Shown one piece after another: positions 6,192-57,286 of a stretch of 64,000 bases of DNA. The stretch is from Solirubrobacterales bacterium. Its GTDB lineage: Bacteria > Actinomycetota > Thermoleophilia > Solirubrobacterales > 70-9. The DNA lies in contig JAXLSZ010000012.1 of assembly GCA_046330315.1 (NCBI GenBank), positions 398 to 64,397 of the forward strand, written 5' to 3'. The notes beneath the pieces are model-generated. The model searched no databases and had not been told where the DNA came from. It worked only from the letters and a program-made list of their open reading frames with translations. Each line of letters begins with the position of its first letter. The first letter of the stretch is position 1. The position numbers and the translations under genes are program-made.

Positions 6192-6318
6192 GTGGGACCT
6201 CTTTCCCTCGAATATCAGGGTTCAGAGGTCCCACGTCGGGAGACGGGGGGCACTTGGGTGGGCCGGCGCCGGGGTGGGACCTCGAACCCCCTCACCATCG
6301 AGGTCTAGAGGTCCCACG
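6192..6318. repeat. Two copies of a ~45-bp palindromic hairpin element (GTGGGACCTC-N22-24-AGAGGTCCCACG), locus A.
   Basis: Copy 6192..6235: GTGGGACCTCTttccctcgaatatcagggttcAGAGGTCCCACG. Copy 6274..6318: GTGGGACCTCgaaccccctcaccatcgaggtctAGAGGTCCCACG. The region is intergenic. The same element recurs at 43333..43667 and 45599..45714. Confidence 0.85.
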
Positions 6319-26542: not shown

Positions 26543-26615
26543 CACCGCTACCGGGATTCGAACCCGGGTTTCCGGACTGAGAATCCGGCGTCCTAGTCCC
26601 CTAGACGATAGCGGC
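26543..26615 (-). tRNA. tRNA-Glu (anticodon CUC).
   Basis: Reverse complement folds as GCCGCTA TC GTC TAGGGGACTAGGAC G CCGGA TTCTCAG TCCGG AAAC CCGGG TTCGAAT CCCGG TAGCGGT G. Its layout matches E. coli tRNA-Glu position for position. 1:72 is a G-U pair. CC, but not CCA, follows. Confidence 0.85.
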
Positions 26616-26730: not shown

Positions 26731-26814
26731 GCGGCTGTGGCGGAACTGGAAGACGCGATACGTTCAGGGCGTATTGTCCGAAAGGACGTGGGGGTTCGAC
26801 TCCCTCCAGCCGCA
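26731..26814 (+). tRNA. tRNA-Leu (anticodon CAG).
   Basis: GCGGCTG TG GCGGAACTGGAAGACGC G ATACG TTCAGGG CGTAT TGTCCGAAAGGACGT GGGGG TTCGACT CCCTC CAGCCGC A. It has a perfect acceptor stem, a long variable arm and a TTCGA T-loop. Confidence 0.9.
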
Positions 26815-40380: not shown

Positions 40381-43299
40381 TCAGGGGACCTCGCGGCGGA
40401 GCCAGCCGCGGTAGAAGCCCTCCAGGTCGGGGAGGAACTCGTGGACCACCGGATAGCCCGGCGTCACCGCCTCGGTCTCCAGCAGCCGGCCCGAGACCGG
40501 GCAGTAGAACTCGCGCAGCTCCATCCAGTCCGGATCGCAGTGCGCCAGCCGCGGATAGACCTCCTCGAGGAGCTCGTCGGTGTCGCGGACGAAGACCGGC
40601 GCGTGCATCTTCCAGTTGCGGTCGTAGCGGCAGAAGTCGTGGCCCGCGTCCGAGCGGATCACCAGCTCCCGGTCGGAGCGGCGCCTCACCACGTTCAGCG
40701 CCTCGCCCACCGGCAGCACGATCGGATCGTCGTAGGGAACCCGCTCCTGGAGGACCGAGGTCCACTTCTCGAAGCGGTCGGGGTCCTTGTAGCCGGACTG
40801 GATGTCCTTGACCTCCAAGCGGGAGAGGCGCTCGTCCAGCAGCGCCGCCAGGGTCTCGCGCTCCAGCGGGCGGCCGGCGGCCCGCGGCGGCTCGACCTCG
40901 GAGACCTCGGAGGAGGACAGGAACGCGGCGGCGGACTCCTCGGGGGTGACCTTGCCGACCGGGGTGTCCACGGCGGCCGGGATGGTCGGCGTCTCGGCGT
41001 CGAATTCGAAGTCCTCTGGAAGGTCCCAGAAGCCACGGAACTCCGCCGCCCAGCGGGCGGAGAGCCTCATCGACTCCGCGTAGCCGACCTTGACGGGCTC
41101 GATCAGGTCGCCGGCCAGCACCCGTTCGCGCTCGCGCTGCCACCACTCCGCAGCCGGGACCGCGCGCTCCAGCCGCCGCTCCCGGGCCCGGGAGCGGCGC
41201 GCCTCGGGGCCGCCGCCGTCCTCGAAGCTGCCGCCCTCCTCGGGGCCGCGGCCGTCCTCGAGGCTGCCGCCCTCGGAGCCGCCGCCCATCTCGGGGCCGC
41301 CGCCCATCTCGGGGCCGCGGCCGTCTTCGAGGCCGACCGCGTAGACCGACTCGGCGAAGCGCGGCAGCAGGTGGCCCTCGGCCACGTCGCGGCGCACCGC
41401 CTCCGGGTCGCGCTCGAGCGGGTCGCCGAGGCCGGCCGCCCCCTTCATCACCGAGAGGTAGAGATCGCCGTTTGCGAAGGGCTCGAGAAGCGTCCAGTTG
41501 TCCAGTCCCAGGTTGCGCTCGCCCGCGATCCCGAGCAGCTCCGGCTCGTCGAAGGGGCCGTCGGCGAGCGGGTAGGCCTCGCCCGCCTCGGCCAGCTCGC
41601 GCAGGTTGTTCGCCTTGATGTTGTGGATGTAGGCCGCCGAGCCCGGGTAGCCGCCGAAGATCCCCTGCGAGGTGAAGAGCCTGGTGGTGCCGAGGTTCTG
41701 GAGCTCCCAGAAGGGCGTGTTCCAGATCATGTGCAGGGACTCGAAGCTGGAGCCGCCGCGATGGCGCCCGGGCCCTGAGGTGTTGGCCTTGATGCGGCGC
41801 GAGAGGTAGATCATCGGGCAGATCAGCTCCCACATCTCGACGTCGCCGGCGTCGCCCTCGGGATTGAACATCGCGGCGCAGGTGTCGGTGCCGTCGAGCA
41901 CGTACTTCGCGCCCATCCCCTGCGCGGCGATCTCGAAGTTCATGATCGCCGAGGAGTTTCCGTACTGGTCCACCCCGCCGCCCTGGATCACGTTCCCCGA
42001 CACCGAGTAGGACCCGATCACCTCCTCGATGAAGCCGCGTGACTGAAGCGCCCGCGAGAGGGTGCGCGGGTAGCCGGTGAAGGCCGGCTGCAGGAAGGCC
42101 CAGGCGATCCCGGTCGAGCCCTCGGCGTCGCCGAGATTGGCGATCGTCCCCTCCGGGAAGTTGGTCTTGACCGCGTAGTAGGCGCCGTCGTTGACCTTGT
42201 CGTTGCAGATCAGGGTCTGGGTGAACATCACCCAGATCGCTCCCTGCATCCCCGAGGGGGTGCAGTTCGCCGAGTGCCAGCCCCAGGCCGAGGCGCCGTC
42301 CATGTCGAGCTCGTAGTCGCCGTCTCCGCCGATCCGCACCTCGAAGGGCGCGTGCATGACGAAGTCGCGGCGGGCCCTCGCCGGAAGCTGGGGCTTGTCG
42401 GCGAAGGTCGTGTCCATGAAGGCGGCGGCGCGGTAGCGGCCCGGCACCGTCATCTCGCGGATCCGCGCCTTGAAGGAGCGCCGGCCCTCCTCGATAACCT
42501 CACGGCTGAAGCGCTTGAAGCGCTCGGCGCCCTCCTCGAGGACGACTCGCTCGACCGCCTCGCGGATCATGTGGCAGCCGGCCAGGCGGGTGCGCTCGTC
42601 GAGCAGGTAGTACATCGGCGCCCGGGTCTGCTTCTGGCAGCGCAGCAGGTGCCAGGCGGCGAGCTCGTCCTCCTCGCCGATCTTCATGCAGGGAAGGTCG
42701 ATGCCGTCGTCGAGGCGGTTGGTCGGGCCCACCGGGACCCCGCCCGGGGTCGAGGCGCCGATGTCCAGGACATGGGTGACGCCCCCGGCCCAGGCGATCA
42801 GCTCCCCCTCCCAGAAGATCGGCACGAAGGTCTGCACGTCGGCGTTGTGGACGTCGCCGATCACCGGGTCGTCGTTGGAGAAGATGTCGCCGGGGCGGAT
42901 CTTCGGGTTGTCCTCCCAGCCGTTTCGGACCATGAACTTGATCGCGTCCGACATCGTGTGGACGTGGACGATGATCCCGGTGGAGAGAGCGATCGAGTCC
43001 CCCTCGGGGGTGTAGAGCGCGAAGCAGAGCTCGCCTAGCTCGCGGACGATCGGCGAGGCCGAGATGTTCAACGCCGTCTCGCGGGCCGAAACCAGCCCCC
43101 CGCGCAGCCGCGCGAAGAGCTTCTCGTAGCCGATCGGGTCCGAGTCCTTCATCTCCAGCTCGGTGATCCCGTGGTAGTGGCCGGTCTCGGCGAAGAGGCT
43201 CTCCGAGGTGGCGAGCATCTCGTCCAGCCTCCGTCCGTCCCAGCCGATGCCCCCGCCCTCCCTGGGTTCCAGCCGGCGGCTCTCTTCGACCATCGCCAT
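40381..43299 (-). CDS. Acetone carboxylase alpha subunit-like (hydantoinase B/oxoprolinase family) fused to an acetone carboxylase gamma subunit-like domain.
   Basis: ORF 40381..43299 (972 aa). Hydantoinase-B-type body: GDVHNADVQTFVPIFWEGELIAWAGGVTHVLDIG, NPEGDAGDVEMWE, GPGRHRGGSSF. The C-terminal ~190 aa look like the gamma subunit: DFCRYDRNWKMHAPVFVRD...HCDPDWMELREFYCPVSGRLLETEAVTPGYPVVHEFLPDLEGF. A Gly/Glu-rich insertion is encoded at ~41204..41332. Confidence 0.75.
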   Translation of the reverse strand: MAMVEESRRLEPREGGGIGWDGRRLDEMLATSESLFAETGHYHGITELEMKDSDPIGYEKLFARLRGGLVSARETALNISASPIVRELGELCFALYTPEGDSIALSTGIIVHVHTMSDAIKFMVRNGWEDNPKIRPGDIFSNDDPVIGDVHNADVQTFVPIFWEGELIAWAGGVTHVLDIGASTPGGVPVGPTNRLDDGIDLPCMKIGEEDELAAWHLLRCQKQTRAPMYYLLDERTRLAGCHMIREAVERVVLEEGAERFKRFSREVIEEGRRSFKARIREMTVPGRYRAAAFMDTTFADKPQLPARARRDFVMHAPFEVRIGGDGDYELDMDGASAWGWHSANCTPSGMQGAIWVMFTQTLICNDKVNDGAYYAVKTNFPEGTIANLGDAEGSTGIAWAFLQPAFTGYPRTLSRALQSRGFIEEVIGSYSVSGNVIQGGGVDQYGNSSAIMNFEIAAQGMGAKYVLDGTDTCAAMFNPEGDAGDVEMWELICPMIYLSRRIKANTSGPGRHRGGSSFESLHMIWNTPFWELQNLGTTRLFTSQGIFGGYPGSAAYIHNIKANNLRELAEAGEAYPLADGPFDEPELLGIAGERNLGLDNWTLLEPFANGDLYLSVMKGAAGLGDPLERDPEAVRRDVAEGHLLPRFAESVYAVGLEDGRGPEMGGGPEMGGGSEGGSLEDGRGPEEGGSFEDGGGPEARRSRARERRLERAVPAAEWWQRERERVLAGDLIEPVKVGYAESMRLSARWAAEFRGFWDLPEDFEFDAETPTIPAAVDTPVGKVTPEESAAAFLSSSEVSEVEPPRAAGRPLERETLAALLDERLSRLEVKDIQSGYKDPDRFEKWTSVLQERVPYDDPIVLPVGEALNVVRRRSDRELVIRSDAGHDFCRYDRNWKMHAPVFVRDTDELLEEVYPRLAHCDPDWMELREFYCPVSGRLLETEAVTPGYPVVHEFLPDLEGFYRGWLRREVP

Positions 43300-43332
43300 C
43301 GCGGCGAGGAACTCTACCCGCCCGCCCCCGGG

Positions 43333-43667
43333 GTGGGACCTCTAATCGCTGACCCTCAGGGTTTAGAGGTCCCACGGCGGGCTGCGGACCGATCGGCGAT
43401 GGCACTCGCACCAGGCGCGCGGGGTCCGGGAGGGAAACGGGGCAGACTCGGCACACTCCGCGCGCCACCCGCACGCCACCCACCGCCACCCTCGCCCGAT
43501 GCTCCGGGTGGGACCTCAAAGCGCTGATGGTCAAGGTCGAGAGGTCCCACGTGGCCGGCCGCCCCGGCCGCCCGGCGCGTGGGGCCACTCGTCACCGACG
43601 CCGTGGGACCAGTCATCGCCGACGCCGTGGGACCTCTTCCCGTCGATGGTCAGGGTCTAGAGGTCCC
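43333..43667. repeat. Three copies plus one half-site of the GTGGGACCTC...AGAGGTCCCAC hairpin element, locus B.
   Basis: Copies at 43333..43376, 43508..43551 and 43627..43667; half-site cgtgggacc at ~43604. Loops share (c/g)tgatggtca(g/a)ggt or ctcagggtt. The third copy abuts the GTG start of the DUF559 gene. Confidence 0.85.
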
Positions 43668-43669
43668 GG

Positions 43670-44596
43670 GTGGCTGTGGAGGCGCACAAGGACCCTTGGA
43701 GGCGGGTGTCTGAGTTGGCCTCGGCTCAGGGTGGGGTGATCGGCAGGCAGCAGCTCCTCGAGGCCGGCCTCGGGCCGGGCGCGATCGACAACTGGCTCGG
43801 CTCAGGCCGTCTCCACCGGGTTCACCGAGGCGCATTCTCGGTTGGGCATCGCGCTCTCGGGGACCGCGGTCGGCAGATGGCCGCCGTCCTGGCCGCGGGA
43901 CGCGGCGCCGTGATCAGCCATCGCAGCGCCGCCCACCTTTGGGACCTTCGGCGAACCGACCGCAAGGTGGTCGAGGTATCGGCCCCCGGGCGCTGCCGGC
44001 ACCGCAGGCCGGACCTTCACGTGCATCGACCGCGCCGGCTCGACCAGGACGACTGCACAGCTCTCGACGGCGTGCCCGTGACCACGGTCGCGCGGACCCT
44101 GCTCGACCTTGCCGAGGTGGTCGGCCTGGCCGATCTCGACCGAGCGACGGAGCAGGCGGAGCGCATCGGGATCTTCGATCTCGACCAGATGAACAGGCTG
44201 CTGGGCCGCAGCCGGGGTCGCCGTGGGCTGAGGCCCCTGCGGGTTGTGCTGGCCCGGCAGGCTCCGGAAACGATGTCGGCCCGGTCGGAGCTGGAGCGCG
44301 CCTTTCTGCGGCTTTGCCGGGAGGGGTCCATCCCTGTGCCGTCGATCAACATCTGGATCGAGGGCTACGAGGTCGACGCGGCCTGGCCCCGGGCCCGGCT
44401 GGTGGTGGAGCTGGACGGCTTCGAGTATCACCGAACCCGGGCCGCGTTCGAGCGCGACCGCCTGCGGGACGCGCAGCTGCAGGCCGCAGGGTTCAGCGTT
44501 ATCCGGCTCACCGATCAGCGGCTGCGAACGGATCGGGACGGAGTGGTGGGGTCGCTTCGCCGGATGCTCGGGCTGGATCAGGCGACGGTGCAGTGA
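43670..44596 (+). CDS. DUF559 / endonuclease-domain protein (AbiEi-like N-terminus, Vsr/PD-(D/E)XK-like C-terminus).
   Basis: ORF 43670..44596: GVIGRQQLLEAGLGPGAIDNWLGSGRLHRVHRGAFSVGH...SHRSAAHLWDL...YEVDAAWPRARLVVELDGFEYHRTRAAFERDRLRDAQLQAAGFSVIRLT. Confidence 0.8.
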   Translation: MAVEAHKDPWRRVSELASAQGGVIGRQQLLEAGLGPGAIDNWLGSGRLHRVHRGAFSVGHRALGDRGRQMAAVLAAGRGAVISHRSAAHLWDLRRTDRKVVEVSAPGRCRHRRPDLHVHRPRRLDQDDCTALDGVPVTTVARTLLDLAEVVGLADLDRATEQAERIGIFDLDQMNRLLGRSRGRRGLRPLRVVLARQAPETMSARSELERAFLRLCREGSIPVPSINIWIEGYEVDAAWPRARLVVELDGFEYHRTRAAFERDRLRDAQLQAAGFSVIRLTDQRLRTDRDGVVGSLRRMLGLDQATVQ

Positions 44597-44629
44597 CGGT
44601 CCGCCCGCCCAGCCCCTCCGGCAAACGCG

Positions 44630-45580
44630 TCAGGCGGCCGTCCCGACCTTGACGCCACCGCGGCGCGCGTTGGCGTCGATCGCATCGACAATCTCCGGCC
44701 AAAGCTGCTCCGGGAGATCGTGGCCCATGCCCTCGATCATCTTCAGGCGTGCTTCGGGAATTGCCCGAGCGGTCGCCCTCCCCGCGGCCGGGCGAATCAG
44801 CGGGTCCGACCCGCCGTGGACGACCAGCGCGGGGAGGTCCAGCCGCCGAAGCCGGCGAGCCCTGTTTCCCGAGCAGTTGATCGCATGAAGCTGACGGGCC
44901 ACCCCCGGCGGGTAGAAGCTGCGCCGGTAGGAGACCTGCATCAGCTCCCGGAACCGCTCGGGGGCCATCGGGTAGCGCGGCGAGCCGATCACTTCGAAGG
45001 TCCTCGTGACCAAATCCATGTAGGCGTCGGCGTCGGAGGGCGGCTTGGCCATCAGCGTCACCATCGCCCTCCACTTGGGCATCCGAAACCAGCGGCTGCC
45101 GGTGCTGGACATCACCGAGGCGATCGAGTGGACCCGCTGCCGATGCTCGATCGCCATCGTCTGGCAGATCATCCCGCCCATCGAGACCCCGACCACGTGG
45201 GCCCTCTCGATTCCGAGGTGGTCGAGCAGGCCGACCGCATCGGCGGCCATGTCGGAGAGCAGGTAGGCGGGGCGGCCCGTCCCCGTGAGCATCGCGGCCC
45301 GACCCGGCATCTTGCGGGAATCGAGCTTGGTCGAGTGGCCGACATCGCGATTGTCGAAGCGGATCACGCGGTATCCCCGCGCGACGAGGGTCTCGCAGAA
45401 CCGCTCGTCCCAGGCTACCAGCTGCATGCCGAGGCCCATGACGAGAAGCATCGCCGGGTCGCCGGTGTTCCCGAACTCGTCATAGGCGATCTCGATTCCG
45501 TTGGAGGCGACCACGTGCTCCCGTTCGGCCAGCCTGTCGAGGGTCTCCTGCACCCTCCGATCCCGATCGCGCCCGCTCAC
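44630..45580 (-). CDS. Alpha/beta hydrolase.
   Basis: In ORF 44630..45949, from the GTG at 45580. The upstream part of the ORF is hairpin-repeat DNA. IEIAYDEFGNTGDPAMLLVMGLGMQLVAW, nucleophile elbow GVSMGG, VVHGGSDPL, GMGHDLP. Confidence 0.8.
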   Translation of the reverse strand: MSGRDRDRRVQETLDRLAEREHVVASNGIEIAYDEFGNTGDPAMLLVMGLGMQLVAWDERFCETLVARGYRVIRFDNRDVGHSTKLDSRKMPGRAAMLTGTGRPAYLLSDMAADAVGLLDHLGIERAHVVGVSMGGMICQTMAIEHRQRVHSIASVMSSTGSRWFRMPKWRAMVTLMAKPPSDADAYMDLVTRTFEVIGSPRYPMAPERFRELMQVSYRRSFYPPGVARQLHAINCSGNRARRLRRLDLPALVVHGGSDPLIRPAAGRATARAIPEARLKMIEGMGHDLPEQLWPEIVDAIDANARRGGVKVGTAA

Positions 45581-45598
45581 CCCTCGAACCCTATGACC

Positions 45599-45714
45599 TG
45601 GGACCTCCCGACCCCGCTGTGAGGGGGTGAAAAGGTCCCAGGTCCTCTGGCGAGCTTCGTGGCTGCGACGTGGGACCTCCGAGCACCTGCTGGGTGGGGT
45701 CAAAAGGTCCCACG
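45599..45714. repeat. Two copies of the hairpin element (variant, probably inverted orientation), locus C.
   Basis: 45599..45641: TGGGACCTCccgaccccgctgtgagggggtgaaAAGGTCCCA. 45670..45714: GTGGGACCTCcgagcacctgctgggtggggtcaaAAGGTCCCACG. Confidence 0.8.
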
Positions 45715-45762
45715 TGGGAGGCGGAGGTGGGGTTGCGGGCCGGGAAGAGCTGGCGGGGCGAG

Positions 45763-47919
45763 CTAGGCGGAGGTGAGGTGGAAGATCTGGTGGCGGTCGA
45801 GCCGGGCGCTGCGGCCCGGGGGGACCGCGAAGGTGGTCGCCACCGACTCGACGATCGCCGGGCCCTCGATCGTGTTCCCGGCCCGCAGCTCGGAGAGCTC
45901 GAAGATCGCGGTCTCGCGACGCTCCAGGCCCTCGCCCGTCTTCCACCACACCGCGCGCCCGCCCTTTGGCGGCGCCGCCGAGTCACCCTCCCGCTCGTCG
46001 GGCAGGGCGGGGCGCTCGACCTCGACCGACCCGAGGACGATCGCGTGAGTCACCAGGTAGCCGAGCTCCGGCGAGCGGGCCGAGCGCGCGAACACCTTCC
46101 CGTAGGCATCCTCGAAGGCGGCGACGAGGTCCTCGAGCTCGGCGGAGTCCTCGAGCTCGGCATGCGGGGAGACGATCTCGATGTCGTTGAGCTGGCCGTA
46201 GTACTGCATCCGCACCGCATGCGTGAAGGAGATCCTCTCCCGCCCGATCCCCGACTTGGCGAACTCGGCGGCCACCTTCTCCTCGAGCCCCTGCCACAAG
46301 CCGGTGATCAGCATCCCGATCCCGGCCCGCTCCATCTCGTCCTGCGCGGGCATGATCGGCATGTCGATGGTCTGGTCGAAGCGGTACTCGAAGGGCGCGC
46401 AGGCGCAGCCGTAGGCGCTGAACCCGGCCGCCCAGGCGGGCACCAGAACGTCCCTGTAGGGGACATCCTCGGTGTAGCCGGCGACGTGGAGCGGCCCGCC
46501 GCCCCCGTAGCAGAGCAGCGCGTAGTCGGCCGGCGAGTAGCCCTTTCCGAGGATCCGCCCGACCGCCTCGTTCTTCAGGGTCTGCTCGAATAGCTCGACC
46601 ACCCCCGCCGCCGCCTCCTCGACGCCGAGGCCGAGCGGCTCGGCCACCTGCTCGCGCACCGCCGCCCGGGCCCGCTCGGGGTCGAGCTTCACCTCGCCGC
46701 CCAGGAAGTAGTCCGGGTTGACGCGTCCGAGCACCAGGTCGAGGTCGGTGACCGAGACCTCCTCCAGCCCGCCCTCGGGCCAGCACATGCCGATCCTCGA
46801 GCCCGCCGAGTCGGGCCCCAGCTCGGGGCGGTTGGAGTTGGGGTTGACCCGCACGAAGGATCCGGTCCCGGCGCCGATCGAGTCGATCCTGACCAGTGGC
46901 ATGGCGAGAAGGAAGCGCGCGATATCCGGCGTCTGGGTGATCTCGAAACGCCCGTCGGTGATCAGCGCGATGTCGAACGAGGTCCCGCCGATGTCCGTGC
47001 ACAGGACATTGGGCAGCCCCATCGCCTCCGCCAGCTGCCCCCCCCCGACCACCCCGCCGATCGGGCCCGAGACCAGAGTGCGGGCCAGCTCCTGTGCCTC
47101 GATCGAAATCGTCCCACCGTGCGAGGCCATCACCCGCAGCTCGAACCCGGCCCCCGCCTCCTTCGTCCTGTGGCGAACCGACTTCAGCGTTCCCCGCGAC
47201 GGCTCGGCCGCGTAGGCCTCGATCAGGGTGGAGTTGAGCCTCGGCAGGTCGCGCCGCATCGGGTAGAGCTGGGAGGAGACGAACACCGGCACCTCCTCCG
47301 AGGCGACCCCGCGGGCGGCCTTCTCCTCCTCGAGGATCTCGGCGACCCGCAGCTCGTGCCCGGCGTTGCGATAGCTGAAGAGCAGCGAAATGCAGATGCC
47401 CTCGACCCCCGCCTCGAGCAGCTCGGCGGCCGCCGCCCGGGCGTCCTCCTCGCGCAGCGGCAGCACCTCGGTGCCCATCACGTCGATCCTCCCCCTCACC
47501 CCCTTGACCAGCTCGCGGGCAACGATCGGCTCGTTGTGGTGGTGCGTGGCGATGTGGAGACGATCGGAGTAGGAGTAGCCGAGATAGGTCTGGATCGCGC
47601 GCTCGATGCGCAGGTAGTCCTCCTGTCCGGCGGTGACCACCGCCCCGATCCTCAGTCCCTGGCGGGAGAGCAGGCGGTTGAGCATCGCGGTCCCGCTGAA
47701 GATCCCCGAGACGATCCCGCCGAAGGCCTGTTCCGGCGAGCTGTCCCACTGCCCGAGCGCGTCCTCGGCGGAGCGCATGAACCCGACCGACTCGTCCTCT
47801 GGCGTGGTCTGGGCCTTGCCGACCGCGAAACGCCCGCGGGCATCGACGATGAAGGTGTCCGTCATCGTTCCTCCGGCGTCGATCGCCAGCACCCGGGGAT
47901 CGCGGTGCGCCTCGCTCAT
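45763..47919 (-). CDS. Acetone carboxylase beta subunit-like (hydantoinase A/oxoprolinase family).
   Basis: ORF 45763..47919 (718 aa): VLAIDAGGTMTDTFIVDARGRFAVGKAQTTPEDES, SGTAMLNRLL, TDIGGTSFDIALI, YGGGGPLH, VPAWAAGFSAYGCA, MQYYGQLNDIEI, ARSPELGY. Collinear with AcxA as I remember it. Confidence 0.85.
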   Translation of the reverse strand: MSEAHRDPRVLAIDAGGTMTDTFIVDARGRFAVGKAQTTPEDESVGFMRSAEDALGQWDSSPEQAFGGIVSGIFSGTAMLNRLLSRQGLRIGAVVTAGQEDYLRIERAIQTYLGYSYSDRLHIATHHHNEPIVARELVKGVRGRIDVMGTEVLPLREEDARAAAAELLEAGVEGICISLLFSYRNAGHELRVAEILEEEKAARGVASEEVPVFVSSQLYPMRRDLPRLNSTLIEAYAAEPSRGTLKSVRHRTKEAGAGFELRVMASHGGTISIEAQELARTLVSGPIGGVVGGGQLAEAMGLPNVLCTDIGGTSFDIALITDGRFEITQTPDIARFLLAMPLVRIDSIGAGTGSFVRVNPNSNRPELGPDSAGSRIGMCWPEGGLEEVSVTDLDLVLGRVNPDYFLGGEVKLDPERARAAVREQVAEPLGLGVEEAAAGVVELFEQTLKNEAVGRILGKGYSPADYALLCYGGGGPLHVAGYTEDVPYRDVLVPAWAAGFSAYGCACAPFEYRFDQTIDMPIMPAQDEMERAGIGMLITGLWQGLEEKVAAEFAKSGIGRERISFTHAVRMQYYGQLNDIEIVSPHAELEDSAELEDLVAAFEDAYGKVFARSARSPELGYLVTHAIVLGSVEVERPALPDEREGDSAAPPKGGRAVWWKTGEGLERRETAIFELSELRAGNTIEGPAIVESVATTFAVPPGRSARLDRHQIFHLTSA

Positions 47920-57059: not shown

Positions 57060-57071
57060 CGAAGACCTCTC

Positions 57072-57215
57072 TTTCTCGGGCCGACGGGGTTAGCTGTCGG
57101 GCTCGCGCTGAAAGAGCTGCGCTACGGACCGCGGTCCGATTCGCCCCCGGAGGCATCGCCTCCATTGGGTCCCCCGCTCCCGTCCGGCGTGCCGGCGGGA
57201 TTAGGCTTGTCTCGA
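57072..57215 (-). promoter_or_regulatory. ydaO-yuaA type cyclic-di-AMP riboswitch in the 5' leader of the M23 peptidase gene.
   Basis: The minus-strand RNA reads ...CCUAAUCCCGCCGGCACGCCGGACGGGAGCGGGGGACCCAAUGGAGGCGAUGCCUCCGGGGGCGAAUCGGACCGCGGUCCGUAGCGCAGCUCUUUCAGCGCGAGCCCGACAGCUAACCCCGUCGGCCCGAGAAAGAGAGG. It contains the class-defining blocks UAAUC...GAGCGGGGGACCCA, GGGG(U/C)GAAUC and CCCG(U/A)CAGCUAACC(U/C)CGU, in the same order as the B. subtilis ydaO leader. Confidence 0.75.
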
Positions 57216-57286
57216 CTTCGGCCGGGATTATACGCAAGTTTCCGGCGAAGAACAGGTTTGTGTTTGCTCACACTGGGATCCCAGAG

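Follow-up and report, generated by a model that had tools for sequence, protein, structure and literature searches.

Repeat copies in the window and their neighbours

The 64,000-nucleotide stretch of DNA analysed here (hereafter the window; G000:C4:398-64397) belongs to a Solirubrobacterales genome of 2.98 Mb in 13 contigs, with 72% GC and a completeness of 94.5%. The window genes were assigned by a Pfam scan, and those beside the repeats described below include a Hydantoinase_B-like gene, a DUF559/AbiEi_4 gene and a Hydantoinase_A-like gene; two tRNAs and a c-di-AMP (ydaO) riboswitch lie at other places in the window (Table 1). The first-pass annotation had listed seven copies of a hairpin repeat and a half-site at ~43604. 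All of these exist, although one start, given as 45599, was off by one base (45598). Four of the copies match GTGGGACCTC-N23/24-GAGGTCCCAC exactly, a pattern whose chance expectation in the window is none (0 in 100 shuffles), and copy 1 was matched by a covariance model at G000:C4:6581-6639 with 64.9 bits. In copy 6 the outer pair has changed from G-C to C-G, with both sides altered. The two copies at 45598-45713 had been thought to represent either the inverted orientation or a subfamily; they are not inverted, and it is the subfamily that they represent (24-nt interior, A at the inner arm position). The locus at 43333-43669 is genuinely divergent, lying between the starts of the Hydantoinase_B-like and DUF559/AbiEi_4 genes.

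Table 1. Repeat copies and other features of the window (positions as in the window; basis of each assignment where given)
Feature	Position	Strand	Basis
Copy 1, 43 bp, GTGGGACCTC + 23-nt interior + GAGGTCCCAC	6192..6234		exact pattern match
Linker of 39 nt joining copies 1 and 2, from the longest of three length classes	6235..6273		linker lengths
Copy 2, 44 bp, 24-nt-interior subfamily	6274..6317		exact pattern match; covariance model, 54.9 bits
tRNA	26543..26615	-	
tRNA	26731..26814	+	
Copy 3, 43 bp, divergent intergenic region, 33 nt off Hydantoinase_B-like gene start	43333..43375		exact pattern; covariance model
Copy 4, 43 bp, positional orthologue of a single copy in sister-genus G104	43508..43550		exact pattern; pairwise comparison
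Lone left half-site GTGGGACCAG	43604..43613	+	sequence read
Copy 5, 43 bp, degenerate right arm GAGGTCCCGG, abuts GTG start of DUF559/AbiEi_4 gene	43627..43669		read directly; covariance model, 51.0 bits
DUF559/AbiEi_4 gene	43670..44596	+	Pfam scan
Copy 6, 44 bp, CTGGGACCTC...AAGGTCCCAG	45598..45641		read directly
Copy 7, 44 bp, right arm AAGGTCCCAC, 49 nt off Hydantoinase_A-like gene stop	45670..45713		read directly; covariance model, 54.9 bits
c-di-AMP (ydaO) riboswitch	57062..57217	-	74 bits

Copy number, constraint and genomic position

A genome-wide scan with the exact arm pattern returned 44 copies versus 0 for the reversed control, and relaxation of the inner arm base gave 65 matches. 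When up to two arm mismatches were allowed, 82 copies were found at 47 loci on all nine large contigs, with interiors of 23 nt in 47 copies and 24 nt in 35, and a covariance model built from the copies recovered the same loci plus one weak extra copy (C13:245062). The motif is therefore dispersed, as first proposed, and not confined to the three loci at which it was initially noticed. Of these loci, 20 hold a single copy, 22 hold two and three hold three, while one has four and another five. Genes were called with a crude codon-usage caller of our own (2,756 genes, 89% coding), so that the classes of genomic context given below are approximate. The centres of 81 of the 82 copies fell outside called genes in a genome that is ~89% coding (P ~1e-75). 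Uncalled regions next to clusters contained ordinary genes that the caller had missed, or a tRNA. At G000:C10:151519-151606 (minus strand), an 88-nt tRNA with a long arm adjoins the four-copy cluster at C10:151659-151923, and is preceded by ~700 bp with low third-position GC and without an Rfam match. According to the same caller, three minus-strand genes (G000:C9:518041, C10:54324 and C12:110281) end at the same position, 23 nt inside a copy, and their C-terminal codons and stop are apparently supplied by the repeat; in the one sequence read by hand (C10:54301), the TCA within the conserved interior TCAG motif provides the stop.

The repeat unit is a 43-44-bp hairpin repeat with arms of 9-10 bp. 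Its consensus consists of a C-rich flank, GAC (or GGG), GTGGGACCT(C/T), 23 or 24 variable nucleotides, (G/A)AGGTCCCAC, GTC (or CCC) and a G-rich flank, and the inverted flanking triplets GAC/GTC (or GGG/CCC) combine freely. In an alignment of all 82 sequences, the eight core arm pairs (columns 10-17 / 44-51) were near-invariant, with at most two deviating copies per pair, and the innermost pair was C-G in 58 copies and U-G in 12, the remaining 12 being unpaired there. Hence, of the perfectly complementary 10-11-bp arms originally described, 8-9 bp are present in every copy and the innermost pair is variable. Considering that the interiors diverge pairwise by ~43% in this genome, several mismatches per copy would be expected in unconstrained arms; none such are seen, so that only the arms are constrained, a pattern of substitution that indicates purifying selection on them. 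At interior and flank positions, standard pairs were formed in only 40-60% of sequences, not above column shuffles, and no interior or flank covariation was found in the 82-sequence alignment (0.128 versus 0.147 shuffled). Interior pairs out of 10 numbered 6.3 within a copy versus 6.6 between different copies, the distance between interiors of different loci equalled the column-shuffled null, and the complementarity of the flanks is compositional, not copy-specific. Extension of the stem through covariation of interior and flanks was rejected on the basis of these covariation and pairing tests. Pairing of the two arms is supported by the inner arm pair, which is C-G in this genome and T-A in the sister genus g59 and is thus compensatory between the genera. 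The mean folding energy of the units was -31 kcal/mol versus -23 +/- 7 kcal/mol for random intergenic 60-mers, and the hairpins were stable in both orientations.

By our own gene calls, the loci occupy 13 convergent, 23 tandem and 11 divergent contexts; 36 of the 47 have a gene 3' end on at least one side, and convergent regions are slightly over-represented (13/47 loci versus 18% of intergenic regions of at least 60 nt). This placement raises the possibility that the repeats are RNA elements, i.e., mRNA 3'-end hairpins that end transcription or block 3'-5' exonucleases and have been selected at many genes. Hairpin stability in both directions fits such elements, as do the three genes that end at a fixed interior position of a copy and a C-rich, G-poor stretch that precedes the hairpin on either transcribed strand and resembles a Rho-loading site. 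However, no U-tract was found after the hairpin, the 3' flank being GTCGGGG with T rare, and no Rfam match was obtained, either for the repeats at gathering score or for 43250-43720 even at E <=1. At least four of the 11 'divergent' loci are artefacts of genes missed by the caller; ~7-11 loci, including that at 43333-43669, lie between divergent starts, and orientation as assigned from interior asymmetry is unbiased relative to the flanking genes (23 same, 15 opposite). Moreover, structure alone does not explain eight invariant bases per arm with almost no compensatory variants, and the 11-nt linker step described below has no obvious RNA meaning. We therefore regard selection as RNA elements as an unlikely explanation of the family.

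Multi-unit loci (27 of the 47) contain 2-5 units each at periods of 59-61, 70-73 or 82 bp. Since neighbouring units are identical at C13:24439/24498, C11:196143/196215 and C13:69447/69506, the clusters appear to grow through tandem duplication. Linkers in this genome measured 16, 17 or 18 nt (6, 1 and 2 cases, respectively), 27, 28 or 29 nt (2, 10 and 1) and 38 or 39 nt (1 and 5), and the six g59 linkers measured 17, 17, 18, 28, 29 and 29 nt. Three narrow classes with a step of ~11 nt thus hold 34 of the 35 linkers of up to 45 nt, including all six from g59, and a Rayleigh test on linker lengths peaked at a period of 11-11.5 nt (z ~27). On metagenome contigs, two tandem pairs were seen, one with a period of 61 bp and the other of 82 bp. 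The linker sequences themselves are without conservation. The ~11-nt step may reflect helical phasing of a DNA-protein assembly, or it may descend from three ancestral dimer types whose lengths were preserved. Judged by interior type, neighbours joined by 28-nt linkers mostly share the same orientation; as the arms are fully palindromic, alternating orientation within clusters is not readable from them. An assignment of the linker classes to head-to-tail versus head-to-head pairs fails, since 16-nt linkers separate identical tandem units. At G000:C9:174102-174181 and G000:C10:54197-54301, 4-5 left half-sites are repeated in tandem every 20-21 bp (GCGTGGGACCTCCCAACCCC, CCTGGGACCTCCCGCCCCCGA), in both cases directly upstream of a full copy.

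The phased spacing also bears on a second explanation, namely that the repeats are sites on double-stranded DNA, serving as operators or in nucleoid organisation, at which a dimeric protein of the clade binds with the arms, three helical turns apart, as its half-sites. The invariant arms, the fixed spacer of 23-24 bp and arm centres 33-34 bp apart are consistent with such sites, the ~11-bp step between tandem units would keep helical phase constant, and copies are present in promoter-containing divergent regions as well as in 3' regions. Nevertheless, three features point to a folded single strand instead: the compensatory inner arm pair between genera (C-G to T-A), the palindromic interiors of young g59 copies and the complementary composition of the flanks (C-rich versus G-rich). 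Furthermore, 82 sites with tandem sets of up to five and amplified identical units would be unusual for a regulon, and we consider it very unlikely that protein binding to the duplex accounts for the repeats.

Taxonomic range, shared loci and the search for a partner

An exact-arm scan of ~185,000 species genomes returned three single hits in other species, which by our own estimate is about the chance number, and two of the three belong to an unrelated conserved element. The relaxed pattern was present in all seven sampled genomes of g59, a sister genus in the same family (31, 18, 17, 12, 10, 4 and 1 copies), and, across 56 further genera of that family, in none of ~390 genomes; sampling 400 genomes in 127 genera throughout the class added one stray single copy. 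Clear family members of many interior types were found on ~25 soil-type metagenome contigs of ~70% GC. The sole hit in viral contigs (43% GC) was dismissed as a chance match. Among the 58 genera sampled within the taxonomic family and the 127 within the class, the repeats are thus limited to this genus and one sister genus; beyond these, they occur on soil-type metagenome contigs. A single copy of the G104 type lies at G744:C2:136411-136453 in a genome from another family within the class, where a mis-binned contig or horizontal transfer is possible.

A near-invariant 44-mer unrelated to the family, GTGGGACCTCGGGTGCAGACAAAGCGCGGGAGTCGAGGTCCCAC, was seen at L002:813-856 and L085:2133-2176 and in L003, L082, L087, L091 and L107. 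It recurs in MAGs that carry different phylum labels as well as in several metagenomes, and is set in a non-coding stretch of ~300 bp dense in GGGAC/GTCCC motifs, just after a small gene. It resembles a mobile element's iteron or transfer locus.

The g59 arms read GTGGGACCTT/AAGGTCCCAC, and the interiors there are much more uniform than in this genome, visibly palindromic and dependent on the species: ..GCGCCATATAGGCGC.. in G104, G152 and G131, ..CCGCGATATCGCGG.. in G183 and G197, and ..CCAGGACAGTCCTGG.. in G169. To compare loci between the two genera, 33 G104 loci with their flanks were mapped onto this genome, and 24 were syntenic. The matching intergenic site is occupied in this genome at nine of the 24 (38%), versus ~1.7% expected if sites were independent. 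In eight positionally orthologous pairs, identity amounted to 144/160 in the arms, 67/185 in the interior and 33-46% in the 25-nt flanks, with the core TGGGACCT fully identical throughout; for copy 4 of the window, the corresponding values against G104 were 19/20 in the arms, 4/23 in the interior and 20/25 in the left flank. Interiors were 80% alike within G104, 57% alike within this genome and 39% alike between the two. From one genus to the other, both the interior and the flanks change freely. At one orthologous site among the g59 genomes, G104, G152 and G183 each have a full copy with the interior type of their own genome, the G131 copy is internally deleted down to GTGGGACC|GTC, G197 is without the element and G067 has unrelated filler.

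Judging from this synteny, the loci are old and, where shared, predate the split of the genera. Since the arms at shared loci are conserved and the interior is of each genome's own type, these results suggest concerted evolution or replacement, and we infer that gene conversion, or replacement at the same sites, has homogenised interiors within genomes. Shared loci with apparent concerted evolution could also result from independent insertions at a handful of favoured targets. The neighbourhood of the window copies is itself conserved: across 40381-47919, the order hydA, alpha/beta-hydrolase, DUF559, hydB is kept in G104, G169 and G131, and the repeat between hydB and DUF559 is also conserved in G104 and G169. 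A second hydrolase copy is found at this hydA-hydB locus in G104 and G131, and DUF559 is missing there in G183. Since the arrangement is kept in the sister genus, the 2.4-kb 'insert' noted earlier at this place predates the genus split, and the separation of the hydantoinase/acetone-carboxylase-like genes is old and does not stem from a recent insertion.

Inverted ends of 10-13 bp that are conserved around a variable middle, presence/absence differences at orthologous sites and a homogeneous type per genome, as after a burst of copying, are also features of MITEs, in which case the arms would be the terminal inverted repeats to which a DDE transposase binds, its gene lying elsewhere. Such elements had been named initially as an alternative to REP/BIME. 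However, direct target-site duplications were not seen; the GAC/GTC (or GGG/CCC) triplets beside the arms are inverted, and a palindromic ACGT duplication is possible. In the inter-genus comparison, neither a clean empty site nor a target duplication was definable, the intergenic DNA being too diverged and saturated. Searches for an insertion sequence or a longer autonomous element with matching ends, and for an arm pair enclosing a gene-sized segment, found none; the intergenic lone half-sites are partial copies, all beside clusters, and the remaining half-sites are random coding occurrences. In addition, a 38% share of syntenic loci common to both genera would not be expected of random insertion. 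It is therefore highly improbable that the repeats are MITEs.

A partner gene was sought as well. A six-frame search found no RAYT/IS200 gene (PF01797) in this genome (94.5% complete) or in G104, G067, G002 and G057, and control genomes were detected, which speaks against the RAYT association first suggested. Genes located between nearby loci were rejected as partners, as none recurs; they are mutually unrelated housekeeping genes that, from their translations, look like MoaA-, XerD- and Fpg-like proteins and various metabolic enzymes. Genes beside the C8, C9, C10 and C3 loci were judged by eye from their translations. The DUF559/AbiEi_4 gene adjoins the window repeats and in G104 has a repeat on both sides. 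This family (wHTH plus Vsr-like endonuclease) has eight other places in the genome besides the window, 9-10 copies in total, and up to 22 matches per genome across the taxonomic family, with paralogues 40-50% identical. It was rejected as a partner, since only one of nine paralogues in this genome lies near a repeat, several copies of such genes are present in 82 of 101 genomes from the taxonomic family, and G183 has 12 repeats without such a gene at the locus. A link to restriction-modification was likewise discarded: RGGWCCY occurs in each arm, but neither GGWCC nor RGGWCCY is depleted in the genome. Among the literature matches listed for the arm sequence, nothing relevant was found.

A probable REP-like family and its relation to known systems

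Our preferred reading is that these repeats probably constitute a clade-specific family of repetitive extragenic palindromes with a REP/BIME-like organisation, independent of RAYT. The REP/BIME-like behaviour noted at the outset is borne out by ~82 extragenic copies, regularly spaced clusters, restriction to one small clade and conserved loci with genome-specific types. In such palindromes, GTGGGACCT(C/T) and its complement, which make up the outermost 9-10 bp at either end, would pair to form a hairpin in RNA or single-stranded DNA and a cruciform in supercoiled DNA, with the C-rich 5' and G-rich 3' flanks able to lengthen the stem. The conservation of the arms suggests that they are recognised sequence-specifically by a factor of the clade other than RAYT. 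Copies would be subject to a homogenising process, either gene conversion or excision and re-insertion at the same sites, and clusters would arise by local tandem duplication in which the spacing of units keeps the ~11-bp step. Secondarily, transcripts are probably protected or ended by the hairpins, which would also mark sites of rearrangement; a terminator or stabiliser role is possible. A more specific version, which we consider doubtful, holds that a RAYT-independent system recognises the arm ACGTGGGACCT once the strand has folded, renews the 23-24-nt interior over and over at fixed sites by rewriting or replacing it, giving rise to concerted evolution, and builds the ~11-bp-phased tandem sets.

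The family offers a clean case of transposase-less, REP-like repeats in a lineage of high GC content whose members are mostly known as metagenome-assembled genomes. Its arms are frozen across two genera, and its interiors are homogenised per genome even at loci older than the genus split. Since copy number ranges from 1 to 31 within g59, a phyletic-profile search for the partner gene is feasible. In practical terms, the repeats probably mark intergenic rearrangement points; they can break assemblies or be mistaken for terminators or small RNAs, and the arm motif is a specific marker of the clade in soil metagenomes.

REP-type repeats have been well studied in Proteobacteria, where the RAYT transposase explains their spread. 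With the REP/BIME elements of Enterobacteria and Pseudomonas, and with REPINs and their RAYT transposases (Nunvar 2010, PMC2817692; Bertels & Rainey 2011, PMC3116915), the present family has in common short imperfect palindromes, tens to hundreds of extragenic copies, singletons alongside regular clusters, a narrow lineage and persistent loci. Unlike RAYT-associated elements, it lacks both RAYT (in the five genomes searched) and the GTAG tag; no such tetranucleotide was found at the 5' end, where the flank consensus before GTGGG is (G)AC or GGG. Also unlike REP/BIME, only the outer 9-10 bp of the stem are conserved here, around a long interior of 23-24 nt. The genome-specific types at shared loci have a possible parallel, in that Gilson et al. 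reportedly described, in 1987, species-specific sequence types at equivalent positions of enterobacterial palindromic units.

Other systems share individual features. Correia/NEMIS and ERIC MITEs are small, non-coding intergenic repeats with inverted ends that fold when transcribed, but neither a clear target duplication nor an autonomous relative was found for the present family, and its 43-bp unit is much shorter. It differs from a CRISPR array in that the interior changes from copy to copy, arrays have at most five units and the 47 loci are dispersed, and from an intrinsic (Rho-independent) terminator in that the hairpin is present while the U-tract is missing and ~7-11 loci lie between divergent starts. 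Integron attC sites and the Vibrio cholerae repeats resemble it in their conserved inverted ends, variable centre, strand-marking asymmetries and species-specific types. However, attC sites form a single gene-cassette array beside the integron integrase, whereas the 47 loci described here are scattered among housekeeping genes on all large contigs.

The closest published class is that of the CGTC-tagged REPs, which have no dedicated transposase, and form families that are species-specific or present in few species (Di Nocera et al. 2013, PMC3733652). Its reported hosts are Proteobacteria, Chlorobi, Bacteroidetes, Spirochaetes and Thermotogae, and do not include organisms of the present kind. 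The question of how transposase-less REP-like families originate and persist has been raised for this class (PMC3733652), and the interior-rewriting system considered above, if true, would be a new enzyme-repeat partnership that could explain such persistence. Similar to the CGTC-tagged REPs, the present repeats carry CGTC at the foot of the stem (GACG...CGTC), have stems of 8-9 bp and have no known dedicated transposase. In the published class, however, an unpaired CGTC is found at one end only, together with an 8-9-bp stem, a loop of 4-5 nt and a CCA-like tail (PMC3733652), whereas here CGTC/GACG occurs at both ends, pairs with itself and encloses a loop of 23-24 nt.
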